From the NCBI GenBank assembly GCA_038065175.1, contig JBBTRN010000018.1, forward strand, positions 1,445-47,978: a DNA stretch of 46,534 bases, written 5' to 3'. A model generated the notes under the pieces. It was not told the DNA's origin, did not search any database, and saw only the letters and a list, made by a program, of their open reading frames with translations. Positions 4,479-46,534 of the stretch are shown piece by piece. Both the position numbers and the translations under genes were made by a program. The number at the start of each line of letters is the position of its first letter. Positions within the stretch are counted from its first letter, which is position 1. The stretch comes from Patescibacteria group bacterium. Its GTDB lineage: Bacteria > Patescibacteriota > Doudnabacteria > UBA920.

Positions 4479-4595
4479 TTGCGATACGGATATCCTGATC
4501 CATTCAGATGATACTGATAATACGGAACAAACATAGAAAATAGAATCAGTATTATCCGTATCATCGGTATTCAAATCCGTATATCAGTATCATAT
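4479..4595. repeat. empty inverted array of degenerate ATACGGAT/ATACTGAT units
   Basis: left arm gatacggatat...gatactgataatacgga; right arm atcagtattatccgtatc...atccgtatatcagtatc; fills the whole intergenic gap. Confidence 0.7.
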
Positions 4596-17081: not shown

Positions 17082-17465
17082 ATGAATGACAAGAATAAAT
17101 ACAAAGACGGTAAAAATTTGCAAAAAAGGACTAAACAATTTGCTATTCGAATTATTAAACTTGCCCGATTTCTAGAAAAAGATCCTATCACACGGATGAT
17201 TGGCCGACAAATCTTTCGATCTGGAACATCCATTGCTGCAAACTACCGAGCTTCTTGCCGCTCCAGATCTGTTAAGGAATTTATTGCCAAATTGGGCATA
17301 GTAATTGAAGAAGCGGACGAAACTGAATTCTGGTTAGAATTACTGATTGAGTCCAGGTTGGTTGAACCAAATTTAATACAAGACCTTTTAAAAGAAGCTG
17401 ATGAAATAACAGCCATTATGGTAAGCTCAAAAAATTCAACAATAGCCAATCAGAAAAAAGAATAA
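17082..17465 (+). CDS. four-helix-bundle protein (23S rRNA IVS protein-like)
   Basis: QIFRSGTSIAANYRA...FIAKLGIVIEEADETEFWLELL. Confidence 0.9.
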   Translation: MNDKNKYKDGKNLQKRTKQFAIRIIKLARFLEKDPITRMIGRQIFRSGTSIAANYRASCRSRSVKEFIAKLGIVIEEADETEFWLELLIESRLVEPNLIQDLLKEADEITAIMVSSKNSTIANQKKE

Positions 17466-17507
17466 TTCTTATCATTCTTAATTATTCTCTAATTCTTATG
17501 TATTCCT

Positions 17508-18227: not shown

Positions 18228-18274
18228 TAAAAAACTGATAATTGATAATAAATAACTTATAACTAAAACAAACT

Positions 18275-18640
18275 ATGGCGTATAAGTTTAGAGACTGGCA
18301 AGTTTACAAAGACGCCAGAAAATTAAGACAAGAAATTAACCGACTTACTAAAACTTTTCCCAAAGATGAGCAATATATTCTTATTGACCAAATTAGAAGA
18401 GCCATTCTGTCGGTAATTTTACAAATTGCTGAAGGCTCTAACCGAAAAACTGAGAAAGACAAAAATCTCTTTATTAATCGGGCTTTGACATCTTTGGATG
18501 AGGTTATTGCTTGTTTTGATTGCGCTTTTGATGATAACTACATTTCTAAGGAAAAATTGGAAGAATTGGAGACTAAAATTGAAAATGTTTCTAGGCAGCT
18601 TAGAGGTTTTGCAAAGTATATTTCCAAAAGTTATAAGTAA
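18275..18640 (+). CDS. four-helix-bundle protein (23S rRNA IVS protein-like)
   Basis: FPKDEQYILIDQIRRAILSVILQIAEG...ALTSLDEV. Confidence 0.9.
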   Translation: MAYKFRDWQVYKDARKLRQEINRLTKTFPKDEQYILIDQIRRAILSVILQIAEGSNRKTEKDKNLFINRALTSLDEVIACFDCAFDDNYISKEKLEELETKIENVSRQLRGFAKYISKSYK

Positions 18641-18670
18641 TTAATTATAAATTATTAGTTAAAATTATTT

Positions 18671-38191: not shown

Positions 38192-38230
38192 AATTGATGA
38201 TTATTTATTAATAATTGATAACTGAAAATT

Positions 38231-38599
38231 CTAAGGTTTGTTGTGATTAGTGATATATTTATCCAGCCCACGAAGTTGTTTGCCGATGTTTTCGGTTTTT
38301 TCCATAAAATATATGTGCTGATCTTGGCTAATATAGCCATCGTCAAATGCAGAATCCAGACACGCAACAACTTCAAAAAGAGAAGTTAAGGAGCGGTTTA
38401 TAAAAACGCTTTTGTCTTTTTCTGTTTTTCTTTCAGACCCTTCGGCTATCTGCAGAAGTACAGAGAGCATAGCTCGCCTCGTTTGGTCGACTAACAGGTA
38501 TTTTTCTTCAACAGGGTAGGCTATTAGAATTTTGTTTACTTCCTTTTTCAGTGTACGTGCGTCTATATACACCTGCCAAGATTGAAACCTAAAAGCCAT
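38231..38599 (-). CDS. four-helix-bundle protein, close paralog of 18275-18640
   Basis: WQVY, YLLVDQTRRAMLSVLLQIAEGSERKTEKDK; flanked by a perfect 16-bp inverted repeat (38207-38222/38605-38620). Confidence 0.9.
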   Translation of the reverse strand: MAFRFQSWQVYIDARTLKKEVNKILIAYPVEEKYLLVDQTRRAMLSVLLQIAEGSERKTEKDKSVFINRSLTSLFEVVACLDSAFDDGYISQDQHIYFMEKTENIGKQLRGLDKYITNHNKP

Positions 38600-38639
38600 A
38601 GGCGGTTATCAATTATTAATTATCAATTATCAATCAGCT

Positions 38640-39185
38640 TTAATTGTGGTGGGCGTTCGTGCGCTGTTCGGGCGGGATTTTTTCGTAAAGGTCGAGGATT
38701 AGTTTGTTAATGGAACCAGGGTTTGGCACGTCTGAAAATTCAAAACGTTCTATGCTGGCCGCGGTTTGCACATACACATCGCCGTAGTTAAAGACAGTGC
38801 CTAAAACCCCGCTTACTTCGCTGGTTACATCTTCTATGTTTTCTATGTGGAGCTCGGAAACTTCGTGGTGGAAAAGCCCAACTTGGTCTATGTCTACAAT
38901 CCTGCGGTCAGTAATGATTTGCACGTTTAGGTAGTAAAACAGCCAAATTAAAAAAAGCGACAAGGTCAAGAATATGGTGTAAACCTGGAGAAATAGTTTG
39001 GTAACCGCGCCAATAGAGCCCTCAAACAGCCCGGGGAGCCAGACTCCCCCATAGCGCCTGAACAAGACTAGCGCCGCGGCAAACATAAACCAAATGAAAA
39101 GTTTTTTCAATAAAACCACCCAGTGCTGGCGCACCACAATATAAATTTTTTCGTCTTCCAGCTGGCTGGGGAAAAGTTTATGCAT
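38640..39185 (-). CDS. bacterial PH-domain membrane protein
   Basis: RQHW, two TMs, ITDRRIVDIDQVGLF and FNYGDVYVQTA. Confidence 0.8.
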   Translation of the reverse strand: MHKLFPSQLEDEKIYIVVRQHWVVLLKKLFIWFMFAAALVLFRRYGGVWLPGLFEGSIGAVTKLFLQVYTIFLTLSLFLIWLFYYLNVQIITDRRIVDIDQVGLFHHEVSELHIENIEDVTSEVSGVLGTVFNYGDVYVQTAASIERFEFSDVPNPGSINKLILDLYEKIPPEQRTNAHHN

Positions 39186-39277
39186 AGGCTAGTAATTGAT
39201 GATTGATAATTTATTATTGATAACTGCTTAGTTTGGTTTTAAGTAATCAATCATTAATCAACAATTATCAATTAATT
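39186..39277. repeat. empty inverted TGATAAT-type array homologous to the arms around 38231-38599
   Basis: TAATTGATGATT and ATTGATAACTG also occur at 38191 and 38214; right arm aatcaatcattaatcaacaattatcaatta. Confidence 0.75.
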
Positions 39278-43798: not shown

Positions 43799-45454
43799 AT
43801 GCCCACGCATCATTTTTTGCCCGGCACCGAAGAAGACCTCAAACGCACGCTGTTTGATGTTAACCGAAAAATGCAGGAAGAGGAGGTTAAGACGAAAGCC
43901 TCGTCTTTGGGGTTGCCTTATGTGGATTTATTTAATTTTCCCATTGATTTTAACGTGTTTGGTTTGTTAACGGAAGAAGAAGCCCGGGCAGCCGAAGCCG
44001 TTGTTTTTTACAAAGAACAAAACGATTTGCGCATTGCCACCCTAAATCCATTAAACGCCTTGTTAAAAAATAAATTAAAGGAATTTTCCGAAAAAAATAA
44101 AGTCGGATTATATTTGCTTTCATCCCAGAATTTTGCGAGAATTTTGAGCCTGTACGACAAAGTCCCAAAATTTAAGGCCAGGGTGCAGGACGAGGCCATA
44201 AAAATTGATAAGCAAAAAGATTTTTTGGCAGAATTGAAGGGCCTGAAAAATTTGTCTTTCCAGCAGCAAAAAAGCATGTCTGAATTAATGGAAATTATTT
44301 TTGGGACAGCGGTTGAGCTTAGGGTTTCGGACATTCATTTTGAGCCGGAAGAGCATTTTGTGAAATTACGCTTCAGGATCGACGGGGTACTGCACGACAT
44401 GCTTCATATTAACCTGAATTTGCAAAAAAGCCTCACGGTTCGTTTGAAAATTCTTGCGAAATTAAAATTTAACATTTCTAAAGTTTCCCAGGACGGGAGG
44501 ATGACTTTTCTTTATTTAGGCAAGCCTATAGATGTCCGCGTTTCTGTCCTGCCCAGCGCTTACGGGGAGGAGATTGTTATGAGGTTGCTTGGAGTAGACA
44601 ACATAGGCTTAAAAGTGTCGGAGCTGGGGTTGGGCGAAAAGGCGGAAGCACTGCTACGGAAAGCCTTGAATAGGCCGAATGGGATGATTATTACCACAGG
44701 CCCCACCGGTTCCGGTAAAACCACAACATTATACGCCTGTTTAAACGAACTGAATGACCCCGGTGTTAAAATTATTACTTTAGAAGATCCTGTTGAGTAT
44801 AAATTAGAAGGAATTGTGCAAACCCCAATAGATCATAACCATGATTTTGATTTTGCAAAGGGCCTGCGCGCGGTGTTAAGGCAAGACCCGGATATTATTA
44901 TGGTAGGGGAAATAAGGGACCAGGAGACCGCGGAAACCTCCATGCAGGCGGCGCTTACCGGGCATTTGGTTTTAAGCACCCTTCATACCAACGACTCTTC
45001 CGGGGCAATCCCCAGGCTAATTAACATGGGCGTTAAGCCGTTTGTCGCGGCGCCGGCCTTGTCTTTAATAATGGCGCAGAGGCTGGTTAGGCGGCTATGT
45101 CCGGCCTGTAAAAAAACAGCCCAGCTTAGCCCCCAGGTTTTAGAAAAGTGCGTTTATGTTTTAAAACAAATTCCCGAAAGCGCCGGAATAAATTTGCCGA
45201 AAGTTTATCAGTTTTTCCACAGTACCGGGTGCGCGGAGTGCGGAAATTTAGGCTATAAGGGGCGGTTGGGGATTTATGAGCTTATGGAGAACACTGAAGC
45301 TATTCAAAAGTTAATTTTTGAACAAGGCTCCATGAGCCAGTTTAAGAAAACCGCGGTTAAGCAAGGCATGGTAACTTTGGCTCAAGACGGCTTGCTAAAA
45401 GCGCTAGCAGGGCTTACAGATGTAGAGGAGGTGTTCAGGGTGGCAATGGAATAA
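43799..45454 (+). CDS. GspE/PilB family assembly ATPase
   Basis: SDIHFEP, RFRIDGVL, TGPTGSGKTTTLY, LRQDPD, STLHTN and a tetracysteine motif. Confidence 0.93.
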   Translation: MPTHHFLPGTEEDLKRTLFDVNRKMQEEEVKTKASSLGLPYVDLFNFPIDFNVFGLLTEEEARAAEAVVFYKEQNDLRIATLNPLNALLKNKLKEFSEKNKVGLYLLSSQNFARILSLYDKVPKFKARVQDEAIKIDKQKDFLAELKGLKNLSFQQQKSMSELMEIIFGTAVELRVSDIHFEPEEHFVKLRFRIDGVLHDMLHINLNLQKSLTVRLKILAKLKFNISKVSQDGRMTFLYLGKPIDVRVSVLPSAYGEEIVMRLLGVDNIGLKVSELGLGEKAEALLRKALNRPNGMIITTGPTGSGKTTTLYACLNELNDPGVKIITLEDPVEYKLEGIVQTPIDHNHDFDFAKGLRAVLRQDPDIIMVGEIRDQETAETSMQAALTGHLVLSTLHTNDSSGAIPRLINMGVKPFVAAPALSLIMAQRLVRRLCPACKKTAQLSPQVLEKCVYVLKQIPESAGINLPKVYQFFHSTGCAECGNLGYKGRLGIYELMENTEAIQKLIFEQGSMSQFKKTAVKQGMVTLAQDGLLKALAGLTDVEEVFRVAME

Positions 45455-45541
45455 CTCCATCTACGGATTACGGATAAGATACCAATATACCGATGAAGTA
45501 ATCCGTATACCCGTAATAAATTGGTAATTGGTAGATAATAT

Positions 45542-45919
45542 ATGACTGAGCTTTTGCATAAAGAATTAAGCGGGCAAATTATTGGCGCCCTATTTGAAGT
45601 GCATAATAATTTAGGTAACGGGCTTTTAGAAAAATATTACCAAAGAGGTCTGGCGGCTGAATTTCAGAAACGTGGCGTTAGTTTTCAGGAACAAGTTTCG
45701 GTTTCGATGTCTTATAAAGGTAAATCAATAGGTCGGCGGGTATTAGATTTTCTGGTTGATGGGAAGGTGGTTGTAGAAATAAAAAAAGACAATTATTTTT
45801 CCAGGCAGCATATTGAGCAGGCAACCAGTTATCTAAAAGCGTTAAATTTAGAACTTGCTATTTTGGCAAACTTTACAGGCGGGGGAGTAAAGTTTAAGCG
45901 CATATTAAATTTGTATTAG
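45542..45919 (+). CDS. GxxExxY protein (PD-(D/E)xK-like)
   Basis: LGNGLLEKYY, DFLVDGKVVVEIK, QATSYL and ANF; flanked by 32-bp inverted arms. Confidence 0.9.
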   Translation: MTELLHKELSGQIIGALFEVHNNLGNGLLEKYYQRGLAAEFQKRGVSFQEQVSVSMSYKGKSIGRRVLDFLVDGKVVVEIKKDNYFSRQHIEQATSYLKALNLELAILANFTGGGVKFKRILNLY

Positions 45920-45989
45920 TCATCCATTCGTATATTGGTAAAGAATCGGTAATCTGTAGATAACCCGCGGGAATAAGCGGTATTTTGTA

Positions 45990-46018
45990 TTGACAAAATT
46001 AGGAAAATGCTGTATAAT
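45990..46018 (+). promoter_or_regulatory. consensus sigma70 promoter
   Basis: TTGACA-17 nt-TATAAT. Confidence 0.8.
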
Positions 46019-46165
46019 TTTTAGTCCCTGAAAAATGGGGCTATTTTTTGCATCTTTAACAATATAATAGGAGGATACAATAGGAGAAGGAAACCCTGTA
46101 CTACTCGCTTCCGCTTGAGTGCAGGGTAAGATGCTCGTTATTTTGGGCAGATTGGTTATTTACAC

Positions 46166-46248
46166 TTGTCATTGCGAGGAGTCCCGACTTGTTGGGACGA
46201 CGCGGCAATCTAGAGTATAGATTGCTTCGGATGCACTCGCAATGACAA
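46166..46248. repeat. palindromic element, same family as the rsmI insert
   Basis: TTGTCATTGCGAG...GCAATCTA...TAGATTGC...CTCGCAATGACAA. Confidence 0.85.
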
Positions 46249-46316
46249 AAGTATCCAGCCTGCCCAGAGTAACGGGCATGATTATAGCCGGGCAGCCCCC
46301 GGCAAGGAGGGACGCC

Positions 46317-46534
46317 ATGTCCCGCATGACGAGCGTTCTGATAATTTTTTCGCTGGCCTTGGCCAGCGCGCTTTTGGCCCAGCCTACGCCCCAACCTCCA
46401 TCGATGGTGGGAGGCATGGGACAAACTATTGCAGTTCCACTCCACCCCTTTGCCGCCCCTCGATTGCAGGGGGCGGATACTGCCCATGAGCCTCGTTGTC
46501 CACTCGGAGAAACGGGCGTGTCAATGGTCATGTA
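46317..46534 (+). CDS. secreted protein, partial (runs off the window)
   Basis: SD AAGGAGG; MSRMTSVLIIFSLALASALLA|QPTP signal peptide; frame open to the window end. Confidence 0.65.
   Translation, partial: MSRMTSVLIIFSLALASALLAQPTPQPPSMVGGMGQTIAVPLHPFAAPRLQGADTAHEPRCPLGETGVSMVM

Follow-up and report, generated by a model that had tools for sequence, protein, structure and literature searches.

How did a gene for a small protein of the GxxExxY family come to lie directly behind a pilB-type gene between inverted arrays of heptamers, and do the gene and the arrays belong together? We addressed this question in a 46,534-nucleotide (nt) stretch of DNA, hereafter the window (contig JBBTRN010000018.1, positions 1,445 to 47,978 of the forward strand), from a Doudnabacteria-like Patescibacterium, an ultra-small groundwater bacterium whose genome assembly (GCA_038065175.1; here G000) comprises 1.03 Mb in 60 contigs. 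The locus was recognized as a member of a family that is defined in the present analysis, the heptamer-armed GxxExxY cassette, in which two inverted arrays of about four TACNNAW units abut an open reading frame (ORF). Such cassettes are a widespread, cross-phylum family that is apparently undescribed. The explanation that we favor for the locus, with confidence that is about evenly balanced, is a selfish cassette in which gene and arms form one unit of inheritance, one that is REPIN-RAYT-like or homing-like in its action and built like the intervening sequences (IVS) of 23S rRNA.

The arms of the window cassette were named A (left), A' (inner, the third arm), and A'' (right), and their positions are given in Table 1. 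A and A'' are 37 nt long, 78% complementary, and 429 nt apart, and A starts 4 nt downstream of the pilB stop codon. An earlier note on this DNA had reported that 45459-45490 matches the reverse complement of 45930-45961 at 26 of 32 positions, which we reproduced exactly as 26 Watson-Crick columns, and had placed a weaker complementary arm before the ATG at about 45501-45537. The latter is present at 45501-45538 and is a second partner of A. This third arm is a direct repeat of 45926-45963 (38 nt, 76%), and it pairs with A more weakly (24 of 36 positions in register), with a perfect 10-bp pairing out of register (45462-45471 with 45498-45507).

The window cassette falls within the definition given above and follows the family plan, A and A'' each consisting of four units with a 4-nt noncomplementary central spacer. 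It deviates in having the extra inner arm and at unit position 5, where arm A has G or C in three of its four units (A in 89% of the family), and its words TACGGAT, TACCAAT, and TACCGAT are a minority type in the family. The note had also seen TACGGAT-like units in the empty array at 4479-4595, and this observation held: TACGGAT occurs 8 times in the window, that hairpin included, versus 3.2 expected copies, and none of 100 shuffles reached 8. Genome-wide, 107 inverted repeats of G000 scored at least 34 versus 11 mirror-repeat controls, and 55 scored at least 42 versus none. The A/A'' score lies near the genome-wide detection threshold, so the arm pair alone is marginal and is carried by its resemblance to the family.

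The encoded protein matched PF13366 (PDDEXK_3) at 113.3 bits (cut-off 22; E 1.1e-32; residues 8-114) and TIGR04256 (GxxExxY) at 115.4 bits (cut-off 35; E 1.7e-33); both scores exceed the curated cut-offs and place it in the GxxExxY/PF13366 family. PF13366 was the sole family match in a Pfam search, which returned no HUH/Y1 transposase, and a sequence search of the PDB with the protein gave nothing relevant. The G-x-x-E-x-x-Y motif that names the family is present (G27, E30, and Y33), together with D...E-x-K and Q-x-x-x-Y, a motif set that we take to be of the RecB/Cas4 type. E30, D69, K81, and Q93 are invariant in 81 sequences, and Y33, E79, and Y97 are at least 90% conserved. The structure predicted by AlphaFold (predicted local distance difference test [pLDDT] score, 95.5; predicted template modeling [pTM] score, 0.88) has a PD-(D/E)xK fold. 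Its nearest solved folds in a Foldseek search were alkaline exonuclease, Cas4 SSO0001 (template modeling score, 0.61), lambda exonuclease, Cas4 Pcal_0546 (root mean square deviation, 2.6 over 99), and Hjc resolvases. Judged by motifs and model, the GxxExxY protein is predicted to be a minimal RecB/Cas4-like PD-(D/E)xK nuclease with its catalytic set intact. A literature search on PF13366/PDDEXK_3 returned a superfamily table entry alone, with the function given as "Unknown," and excerpts of one paper mention the GxxExxY domain merely as the neighbor of a reverse transcriptase (PMC8934634).

Inverted arms are not peculiar to this copy. G000 has 12 PF13366 matches, two of which are pieces of one broken copy; inverted arms of 7- to 8-nt units accompany 8 of 10 GxxExxY copies, and the other two have arms further out. 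Among relatives (40 genomes), 17 of 28 GxxExxY loci scored above the 95th percentile of mismatched flank pairs, as did 21 of 29 loci of PF05635 (23S_rRNA_IVP). In a GTDB-wide sample of 77 usable loci, the median inverted-repeat score was 43 versus 22 for mismatched pairs. Only 41 of these loci lay above the 95th percentile of the control, because the arms of different loci are alike and a control of mismatched pairs is therefore very strict. The 77 loci came from named metagenome-assembled genomes of Patescibacteria, Bacteroidota, Gammaproteobacteria, and Bdellovibrionales and from one Woesearchaeota-labeled bin; the scan used a four-sequence alignment, so the sample is biased to close relatives of the window protein. 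A literature search with GxxExxY, PF13366, and IVS-protein/heptamer combinations found no description of such a cassette, a paper on the Coxiella IVS being the sole relevant match.

Arm anatomy was analyzed in the 73 cassettes, out of 108 examined, that scored at least 33. Exactly four TAC triplets are present in 34 of the 73 left arms, and the spacing from TAC to TAC is 7 to 8 nt in 104 of 178 intervals and 10 to 11 nt, corresponding to the central spacer, in 43. The consensus unit is TAC followed by G (53%), A (27%), or T (19%), then A (89%), A (98%), and A or T. Typically, the left arm ends 0 to 20 nt upstream of the ATG, and the right arm runs from the stop codon on. The arm anatomy is thus conserved in sequence, not merely in pairing. 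Because an inverted repeat is identical on both strands, the polarity of the arms relative to the gene was uninformative on gene orientation.

Among 20 ORFs of G000 scanned as enclosed by array arms, 10 belong to PF13366, 6 belong to PF05635, and 4 are others (PrgI, a weak PsbP_2, DUF559, and bPH_2). The earlier note had proposed that unrelated cargo uses the same cassette logic. This stood for the design, which is common to the PF05635 cassettes of the window, and failed for the arm words: TACNNAW units occur in none of 20 PF05635 cassettes, which carry instead words such as GTAAGT, TAGCTT, and TGATAA. Each cargo family thus has its own arm vocabulary. Stop codons in every reading frame are carried by 27 of 73 right arms of GxxExxY cassettes (14.2 in shuffles), and we did not adopt them as the purpose of the heptamers, since only 8 of 73 left arms have them, below the 14.6 in shuffles.

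Arms of the same family also occur in hairpins that lack a gene. The gene-less hairpins of G000 occupy precisely the gap from a stop codon to the start codon that follows, and both of their arms are 85 to 90% identical to arms of loaded cassettes. For the hairpins at C2 55285-55385 and C4 43060-43190, the matches to the cassette on contig C51 are 36/42, 46/51, 34/40, and 45/54. On contig C47, filler of unrelated sequence lies between arms that match those of the C33 cassette (42/48 and 39/47). Arm A itself has a match, at 34 of 36 positions, in the left arm of a gene-less hairpin on contig C11, and the right arm of this hairpin is about equally like A' (29/36) and A'' (30/37). Another relative, G010, has a 1.3-Mb genome in which a pattern of two units plus a third TAC gave 84 matches versus 2 for the reversed control, and its TACTAAA hairpins (e.g., L192-L210) often stand several within a few kilobases of one contig. 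Seventeen gene-less copies of G010, aligned over about 112 bp, have invariant ends (TCTAC...GTAGA) and a conserved loop in both orientations between unrelated flanks, and a loaded copy bears the same array words at its two ends.

The number of arrays tends to follow the number of genes. In 41 related genomes, which hold from 0 to 12 PF13366 copies per 1-Mb genome, TAC-array counts correlate with PF13366 counts (Spearman 0.77). At least five arrays are present in 15 of the 21 genomes with the gene versus 1 of the 20 without, and arrays exceed two per gene in 10 of 21 versus 1 of 20.

Table 1. Positions of the cassette behind pilB, its borders, and related elements in the window
Feature	Positions	Strand	Remarks
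pilB-type secretion ATPase, host gene upstream of the cassette	43799..45454	+	PF00437 T2SSE, E 3.5e-119
Arm A, left, TAC-type	45459..45495		four heptamers: TACGGAT, TACGGAT, spacer AAGA, TACCAAT, TACCGAT
Arm A', extra inner arm, right-type (GTA-type)	45501..45538		ends 3 nt 5' of the ATG
GxxExxY gene, 125 aa	45542..45919	+	PF13366, TIGR04256
Arm A'', right, GTA-type, true partner of A	45925..45961		starts 6 nt 3' of the stop codon of the gene
Weak remnant of the pilB terminator	45964..45987	+	CCGC...GCGG, then T-rich tail; read from the sequence and from likeness to the hairpin/T-run of relatives
Consensus promoter for the transcription unit that follows; far border of the slot	45990..46018	+	TTGACA-17-TATAAT, 12/12
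Sister cassette, PF05635 (23S_rRNA_IVP), ORF 18275-18640	18233..18660	+	inverted-repeat score 44; Pfam E 9.7e-30
Sister cassette, PF05635, ORF 38231-38599	38193..38634	-	inverted-repeat score 40; Pfam E 4e-23
Gene-less heptamer-array hairpin, other arm subfamily	4479..4595		right arm matches that of the broken GxxExxY cassette on contig C30 at 43/50

The slot behind pilB allowed the history of the cassette to be followed at one site. The gene is not fixed there: among 29 pilB loci of relatives, one of them without downstream DNA, it was present in just one (G019) and in none of three congeners. In the loci of two congeners (L023 of G003 and L024 of G002), the first 110 nt after pilB hold a different inverted repeat, which surrounds 60 to 80 nt, and no heptamer cassette; the repeat of one reads CCCC(C/T)ACACCAAACG ... 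CGTTTGGTGTGGGG, and the other has a shorter version. In a wider scan, the C-terminus of pilB was found directly 5' of a GxxExxY gene at L112, L114, L115, L116, L119, and L124 (identical to G019). All slot orthologues have the cassette between the pilB stop codon and a conserved hairpin-plus-T-run terminator, followed by a consensus promoter. Whether or not they have the cassette, relatives show a clear terminator hairpin with a T-run at this place, and the promoter layout after the slot recurs in relatives. The terminator of G000 is degenerate, and a consensus terminator scan did not call the remnant at 45964-45987. As this remnant lies 3' of the cassette, the cassette is within the pilB transcription unit.

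A tree of 107 GxxExxY proteins (quick IQ-TREE search, 133 columns, leaving out rows with internal stops or a length outside 100 to 160 aa) put the 8 slot copies into one group, with a Shimodaira-Hasegawa-like approximate likelihood ratio test (SH-aLRT) value of 88; none of 500 label shuffles was as low. G000 and L112 are sisters in this tree (SH-aLRT 96), and the L112 protein is 78% identical. The arms tell a more varied story, since five orthologues have two, L112 has four, and G000 has three. In L112 (L1 503-543, R1 560-600, gene 601-978, L2 983-1023, and R2 1029-1067), the gene is flanked on either side by one complete hairpin, and the arms of G000 correspond to L1, R1, and R2, with no L2. 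G000 either lost this inner left-type arm or never gained it. A counterpart of A' is absent from the five two-armed orthologues, and the outer arm ends are recognizably alike among the slot orthologues. With extra arms only in G000 and L112, parsimony makes the two-arm state older and the third arm secondary. A' is 33/36 identical to R2 and 31/36 to R1 of L112 versus 27/36 to its own A'', and this closer likeness to the right-type arms of L112 shows that arms were reshuffled, not simply copied in place. Compared in this way, A' is a later, lineage-specific right-type arm that would turn A into a local hairpin.

These comparisons bear on the earlier proposal that the gene was inserted into a preexisting empty hairpin, which did not hold up: six other species have the orthologous gene and arms in the same slot. 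Inner arms occur only in G000 and L112, and the local A-A' hairpin is hence younger than the gene. A lone array does stand after pilB in several gene-less relatives, such as a full four-unit left arm in G010; such arrays can be read equally well as remnants of a lost cassette, which is how we take them.

In the explanation that we favor, the gene and the arms A and A'' would travel as one unit, a minimal nuclease gene between inverted arrays of about four TACNNAW units, which in this genome follows the stop codon of pilB, precedes its terminator, and would be cotranscribed with pilB. In the sister L112, the arms would have been duplicated on both sides of the gene to give four. The nuclease would recognize the TACNNAW arrays, probably as a hairpin in single-stranded DNA, and loaded cassettes as well as gene-less hairpins that share their arms would be copied or moved as a result. 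It might act either as a RAYT does with its REPINs or as a homing nuclease that copies the cassette into empty hairpins with the arms as homology. At the RNA level, an arm stem of about 31 bp around the ORF may be a substrate for the encoded RNase III, as in ORF-bearing 23S IVS. Three parts of this account are inferred: that the arrays are acted on by the nuclease, which way transfer runs, and RNase III processing, if any.

Among the nearest known counterparts of the cassette are the ORF-bearing 23S IVS and REPIN-RAYT systems. As described in excerpts of PMC4990558, the Coxiella 23S IVS has an S23p ORF in a 28-bp stem, with three to four copies of the heptamer GACAGAT ahead of the ATG; the first repeat is where RNase III cuts. 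The window cassette resembles the IVS of Coxiella burnetii and Leptospira, so far as the excerpts portray them, in having an ORF of about 120 to 140 codons in the loop of a terminal-inverted-repeat stem and tandem heptamers right before the start codon (GACAGAT three to four times in Coxiella; TACGGAT/TACCAAT here). It is likewise part of a host transcript, and the classical IVS cargo, PF05635, fills the sister cassettes of the window. It differs in lying between a protein gene and a terminator instead of in an rRNA helix, and in carrying a PD-(D/E)xK nuclease (PF13366) instead of the four-helix bundle of S23p/PF05635. For the window cassette, RNase III cutting is a prediction, and the dispersed gene-less copies and the third arm fall outside the IVS description. 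The 23S rRNA gene, which we looked for to find an IVS, is not in the G000 assembly.

With REPIN-RAYT systems, as far as excerpts of the literature describe them, the cassette shares a small nuclease-type gene between its own cognate inverted repeats (PMC3116915, PMC3337134), RAYTs being typically flanked by REPINs (PMC3337134). It also shares gene-less hairpin doublets with the same repeats dispersed between genes, vertical inheritance of the gene at a fixed site, and a growth of single repeats into doublets by duplication, the proposed origin of REPINs, which may be paralleled here by the step from two arms to four. Unlike RAYTs, the window protein has a PD-(D/E)xK fold and is not an HUH/Y1 (IS200-like) transposase. 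In place of REP palindromes, the cassette has tandem heptamer arrays, and a genome may hold several loaded copies (12 Pfam matches in G000), not one. Dependence of the repeats on the gene is only partly supported (15/21 versus 1/20 among kin; 4/22 versus 8/129 phylum-wide). Loaded and empty versions with common terminal inverted repeats, the empty ones multicopy, sharp-ended, and in both orientations, recall miniature inverted-repeat transposable elements (MITEs) and their autonomous parents. Unlike these, the cassette contains no recognizable transposase, and no target-site duplication was seen at eight borders viewed by eye. Short intergenic heptamer arrays near start codons are also found in marine Beggiatoaceae; as given in excerpts of PMC4679880, these TAACTGA repeats are intergenic heptanucleotide direct repeats, with inversion in one of 170 sets; they do not flank a gene in pairs, and no cargo gene goes with them.

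Several observations weigh against the selfish-cassette explanation. The slot copy is old and vertically inherited; it has been in place since before the species split and is not moving now. Contigs of four metagenome DNA runs over 44900-46534, a coverage in short pieces, contained no gene-skipping joint and no cassette variant, and inspection by eye of eight element borders revealed no target-site duplication. The 41 genomes used for the array-gene correlation are kin and not independent, so that the correlation is inflated; across 151 genomes drawn from the whole phylum, the link is weak, with at least five arrays in 4 of the 22 that have the gene and 8 of the 129 that lack it (p 0.08), and at least 10 arrays in 3 of 22 versus 1 of 129 (p 0.01). 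One genome, G081 (96% complete), has 43 array matches and about 20 gene-less TACGAAT hairpins, and no GxxExxY protein was found in it with an 81-sequence profile at E up to 1; either this is an orphan hairpin population or a gene was missed. G020 has 13 array matches and no GxxExxY gene. PF05635, which is present in 33 of the 41 related genomes, often without PF13366, forms cassettes of the same design with no enzyme in many genomes that lack GxxExxY, so the cargo nuclease is dispensable for the design. Furthermore, our literature search returned no published activity for any GxxExxY protein. Finally, in the arm pairs that could be used (30 of 45 tried), sense-strand mismatches were 20 of the G·U type versus 32 of the A·C type; the G·U type is not in excess (p 0.13), so selection on an RNA stem is not visible.

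The alternative that survives best, and that we consider unlikely, confines the arms to RNA. They would fold the 3' end of the pilB transcript around the ORF for RNase III cutting or translation control, with A' as a cotranscriptional switch and with no DNA mobility. The place of the cassette within the pilB transcription unit, 5' of the terminator, suits this explanation, and the pairing of the arms is strong when duplex energies are compared with those of 1,000 mononucleotide shuffles of the partner. As an RNA duplex, A:A'' reached -39.0 kcal/mol (z -9.4; no shuffle below -23.0), and A:A' reached -23.9 kcal/mol (z -4.7; best shuffle -25.9). The local A-A' hairpin (-23.5 kcal/mol as RNA) would form first during transcription. 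Its in-register pairing relies on G·U pairs, and it is far weaker with DNA parameters (-11.6), with which only the 10-bp out-of-register pairing is left. At equilibrium, however, the predicted partner of A is A'': in the predicted RNA fold of 45450-45970, A pairs with A'' at 31 of 37 positions (30.4 expected pairs) and with A' in 0.1. The alternative-pairing switch of the earlier note is thus conceivable and unsupported.

An RNA device would also draw on the RNase III gene that is encoded in G000 and on the cutting of the heptamer-bearing Coxiella IVS by that enzyme, as reported in excerpts of PMC4990558. The three-frame stops in 13 of 20 PF05635 left arms (4.3 in shuffles) look translational. 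Against it stand the lack of a G·U excess across the 30 arm pairs and a heptamer word that is conserved across phyla well past the needs of pairing. The slot orthologues L116 and L115 keep the gene despite poorly complementary arms (inverted-repeat scores of 15 and 20), and the predicted fold of L112 is a mixture of local and long-range pairs, so that enclosure of the ORF is not conserved. Moreover, the gene-less copies are sharp-ended and lie in both orientations at unrelated sites.

A further alternative, which we judge improbable, regards the arrays as host intergenic punctuation (terminator-, stabilizer-, or insulator-like) generated by replication slippage. Selfish genes would survive best inside them, and the match between arms would be a by-product of slippage and hairpin-templated repair without dedicated machinery. 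Array hairpins do fill the stop-start gaps of ordinary codirectional genes and flank, for example, ribosomal protein genes; hairpins exist without the gene in G081; and heptamers are given, in excerpts of PMC4679880, as the commonest class of short tandem repeats in many bacteria. Punctuation of this kind is hard to reconcile with an arm vocabulary specific to the cargo family, a TACNAAW word conserved across phyla, and multicopy gene-less elements with a conserved loop and sharp ends, which slippage cannot disperse. Most improbable is that an empty hairpin (A-A' or A-A'') came first after pilB and the gene was inserted later into or beside it: same-arm-family gene-less hairpins in G000 (C11) and in many operon gaps, the hairpins that stand alone in G081, and the lone arrays of relatives lend it some credit, whereas gene and arms are co-inherited in the slot of seven species with outer arm ends alike, the extra arm is restricted to the youngest pair (G000 and L112), the lone arrays (e.g., in G010) would equally well be remnants of a lost cassette, and the first arrival of the cassette in the slot is too far back to see.

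Some neighboring features were noted in passing. The promoter at 45990-46018 stands directly before a hairpin with a T-run (46022-46043) and a leader containing AGGAGG. This layout of 45990-46110 recurs after the pilB slot in relatives and may be a small RNA or an attenuator. Farther along, the arms 46131-46178 and 46236-46279 form an inverted repeat of a different family (GTCATTGCGAGG...CAATCTA type) with no gene in it, and elsewhere in G000 these arms enclose small GIY-YIG genes (e.g., C45 17070-17481; PF01541, E 5.6e-14). In metagenome contigs, summed depths are about 100 and about 360 in the two bins spanning 46165-46274 versus about 8 nearby, which marks a high-copy repeat.

A further PF05635 match (61 bits) lies at 17124-17420, just upstream of the cassette at 18233-18660, with an array of 9-nt units at 17462-17499. 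The four TGATAAT-type arms at 38193-39274 resolve into the PF05635 cassette at 38193-38634 and a gene-less hairpin at 39193-39274; the membrane-protein gene at 38640-39185 (weak bPH_2) sits between the two elements, and its enclosure is only apparent. On contig C22 (30521-30980), a DUF559 gene (Vsr-like endonuclease, PF04480, E 1.4e-34) lies in GC-rich inverted repeats whose arms are unlike heptamer arrays; it is the third kind of small hairpin-enclosed nuclease gene in G000. On contig C54 (11101-13183), inverted repeats of 177 nt that are 97% identical surround a 482-aa ORF, and this element is probably an insertion sequence.

Few small genes of unknown function are as common in Patescibacteria, Bacteroidota, and cyanobacteria as those of GxxExxY (PF13366) and PF05635, and how rRNA intervening sequences arose has been an open question since about 1990. 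More tentatively than the selfish cassette itself, we propose that GxxExxY proteins could drive a new class of mobile hairpin elements found across phyla, and the ORF-bearing 23S IVS would be elements of this kind landed in rRNA. A RecB/Cas4-like nuclease of 125 residues would then recognize tandem TACNNAW heptamers in hairpin form and copy both the gene that encodes it and gene-less hairpins into the stop-to-start gaps of operons, and the slot series of two, four, and three arms would represent a step from single arms to self-contained REPIN-like doublets. If the GxxExxY and PF05635 genes are the cargo or the engine of hairpin cassettes, this would explain their patchy, multicopy distribution and would also account for the dense intergenic heptamer hairpins in tiny genomes. 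The pilB slot would provide a dated series at one orthologous site, in which the evolution of the arms themselves can be seen.

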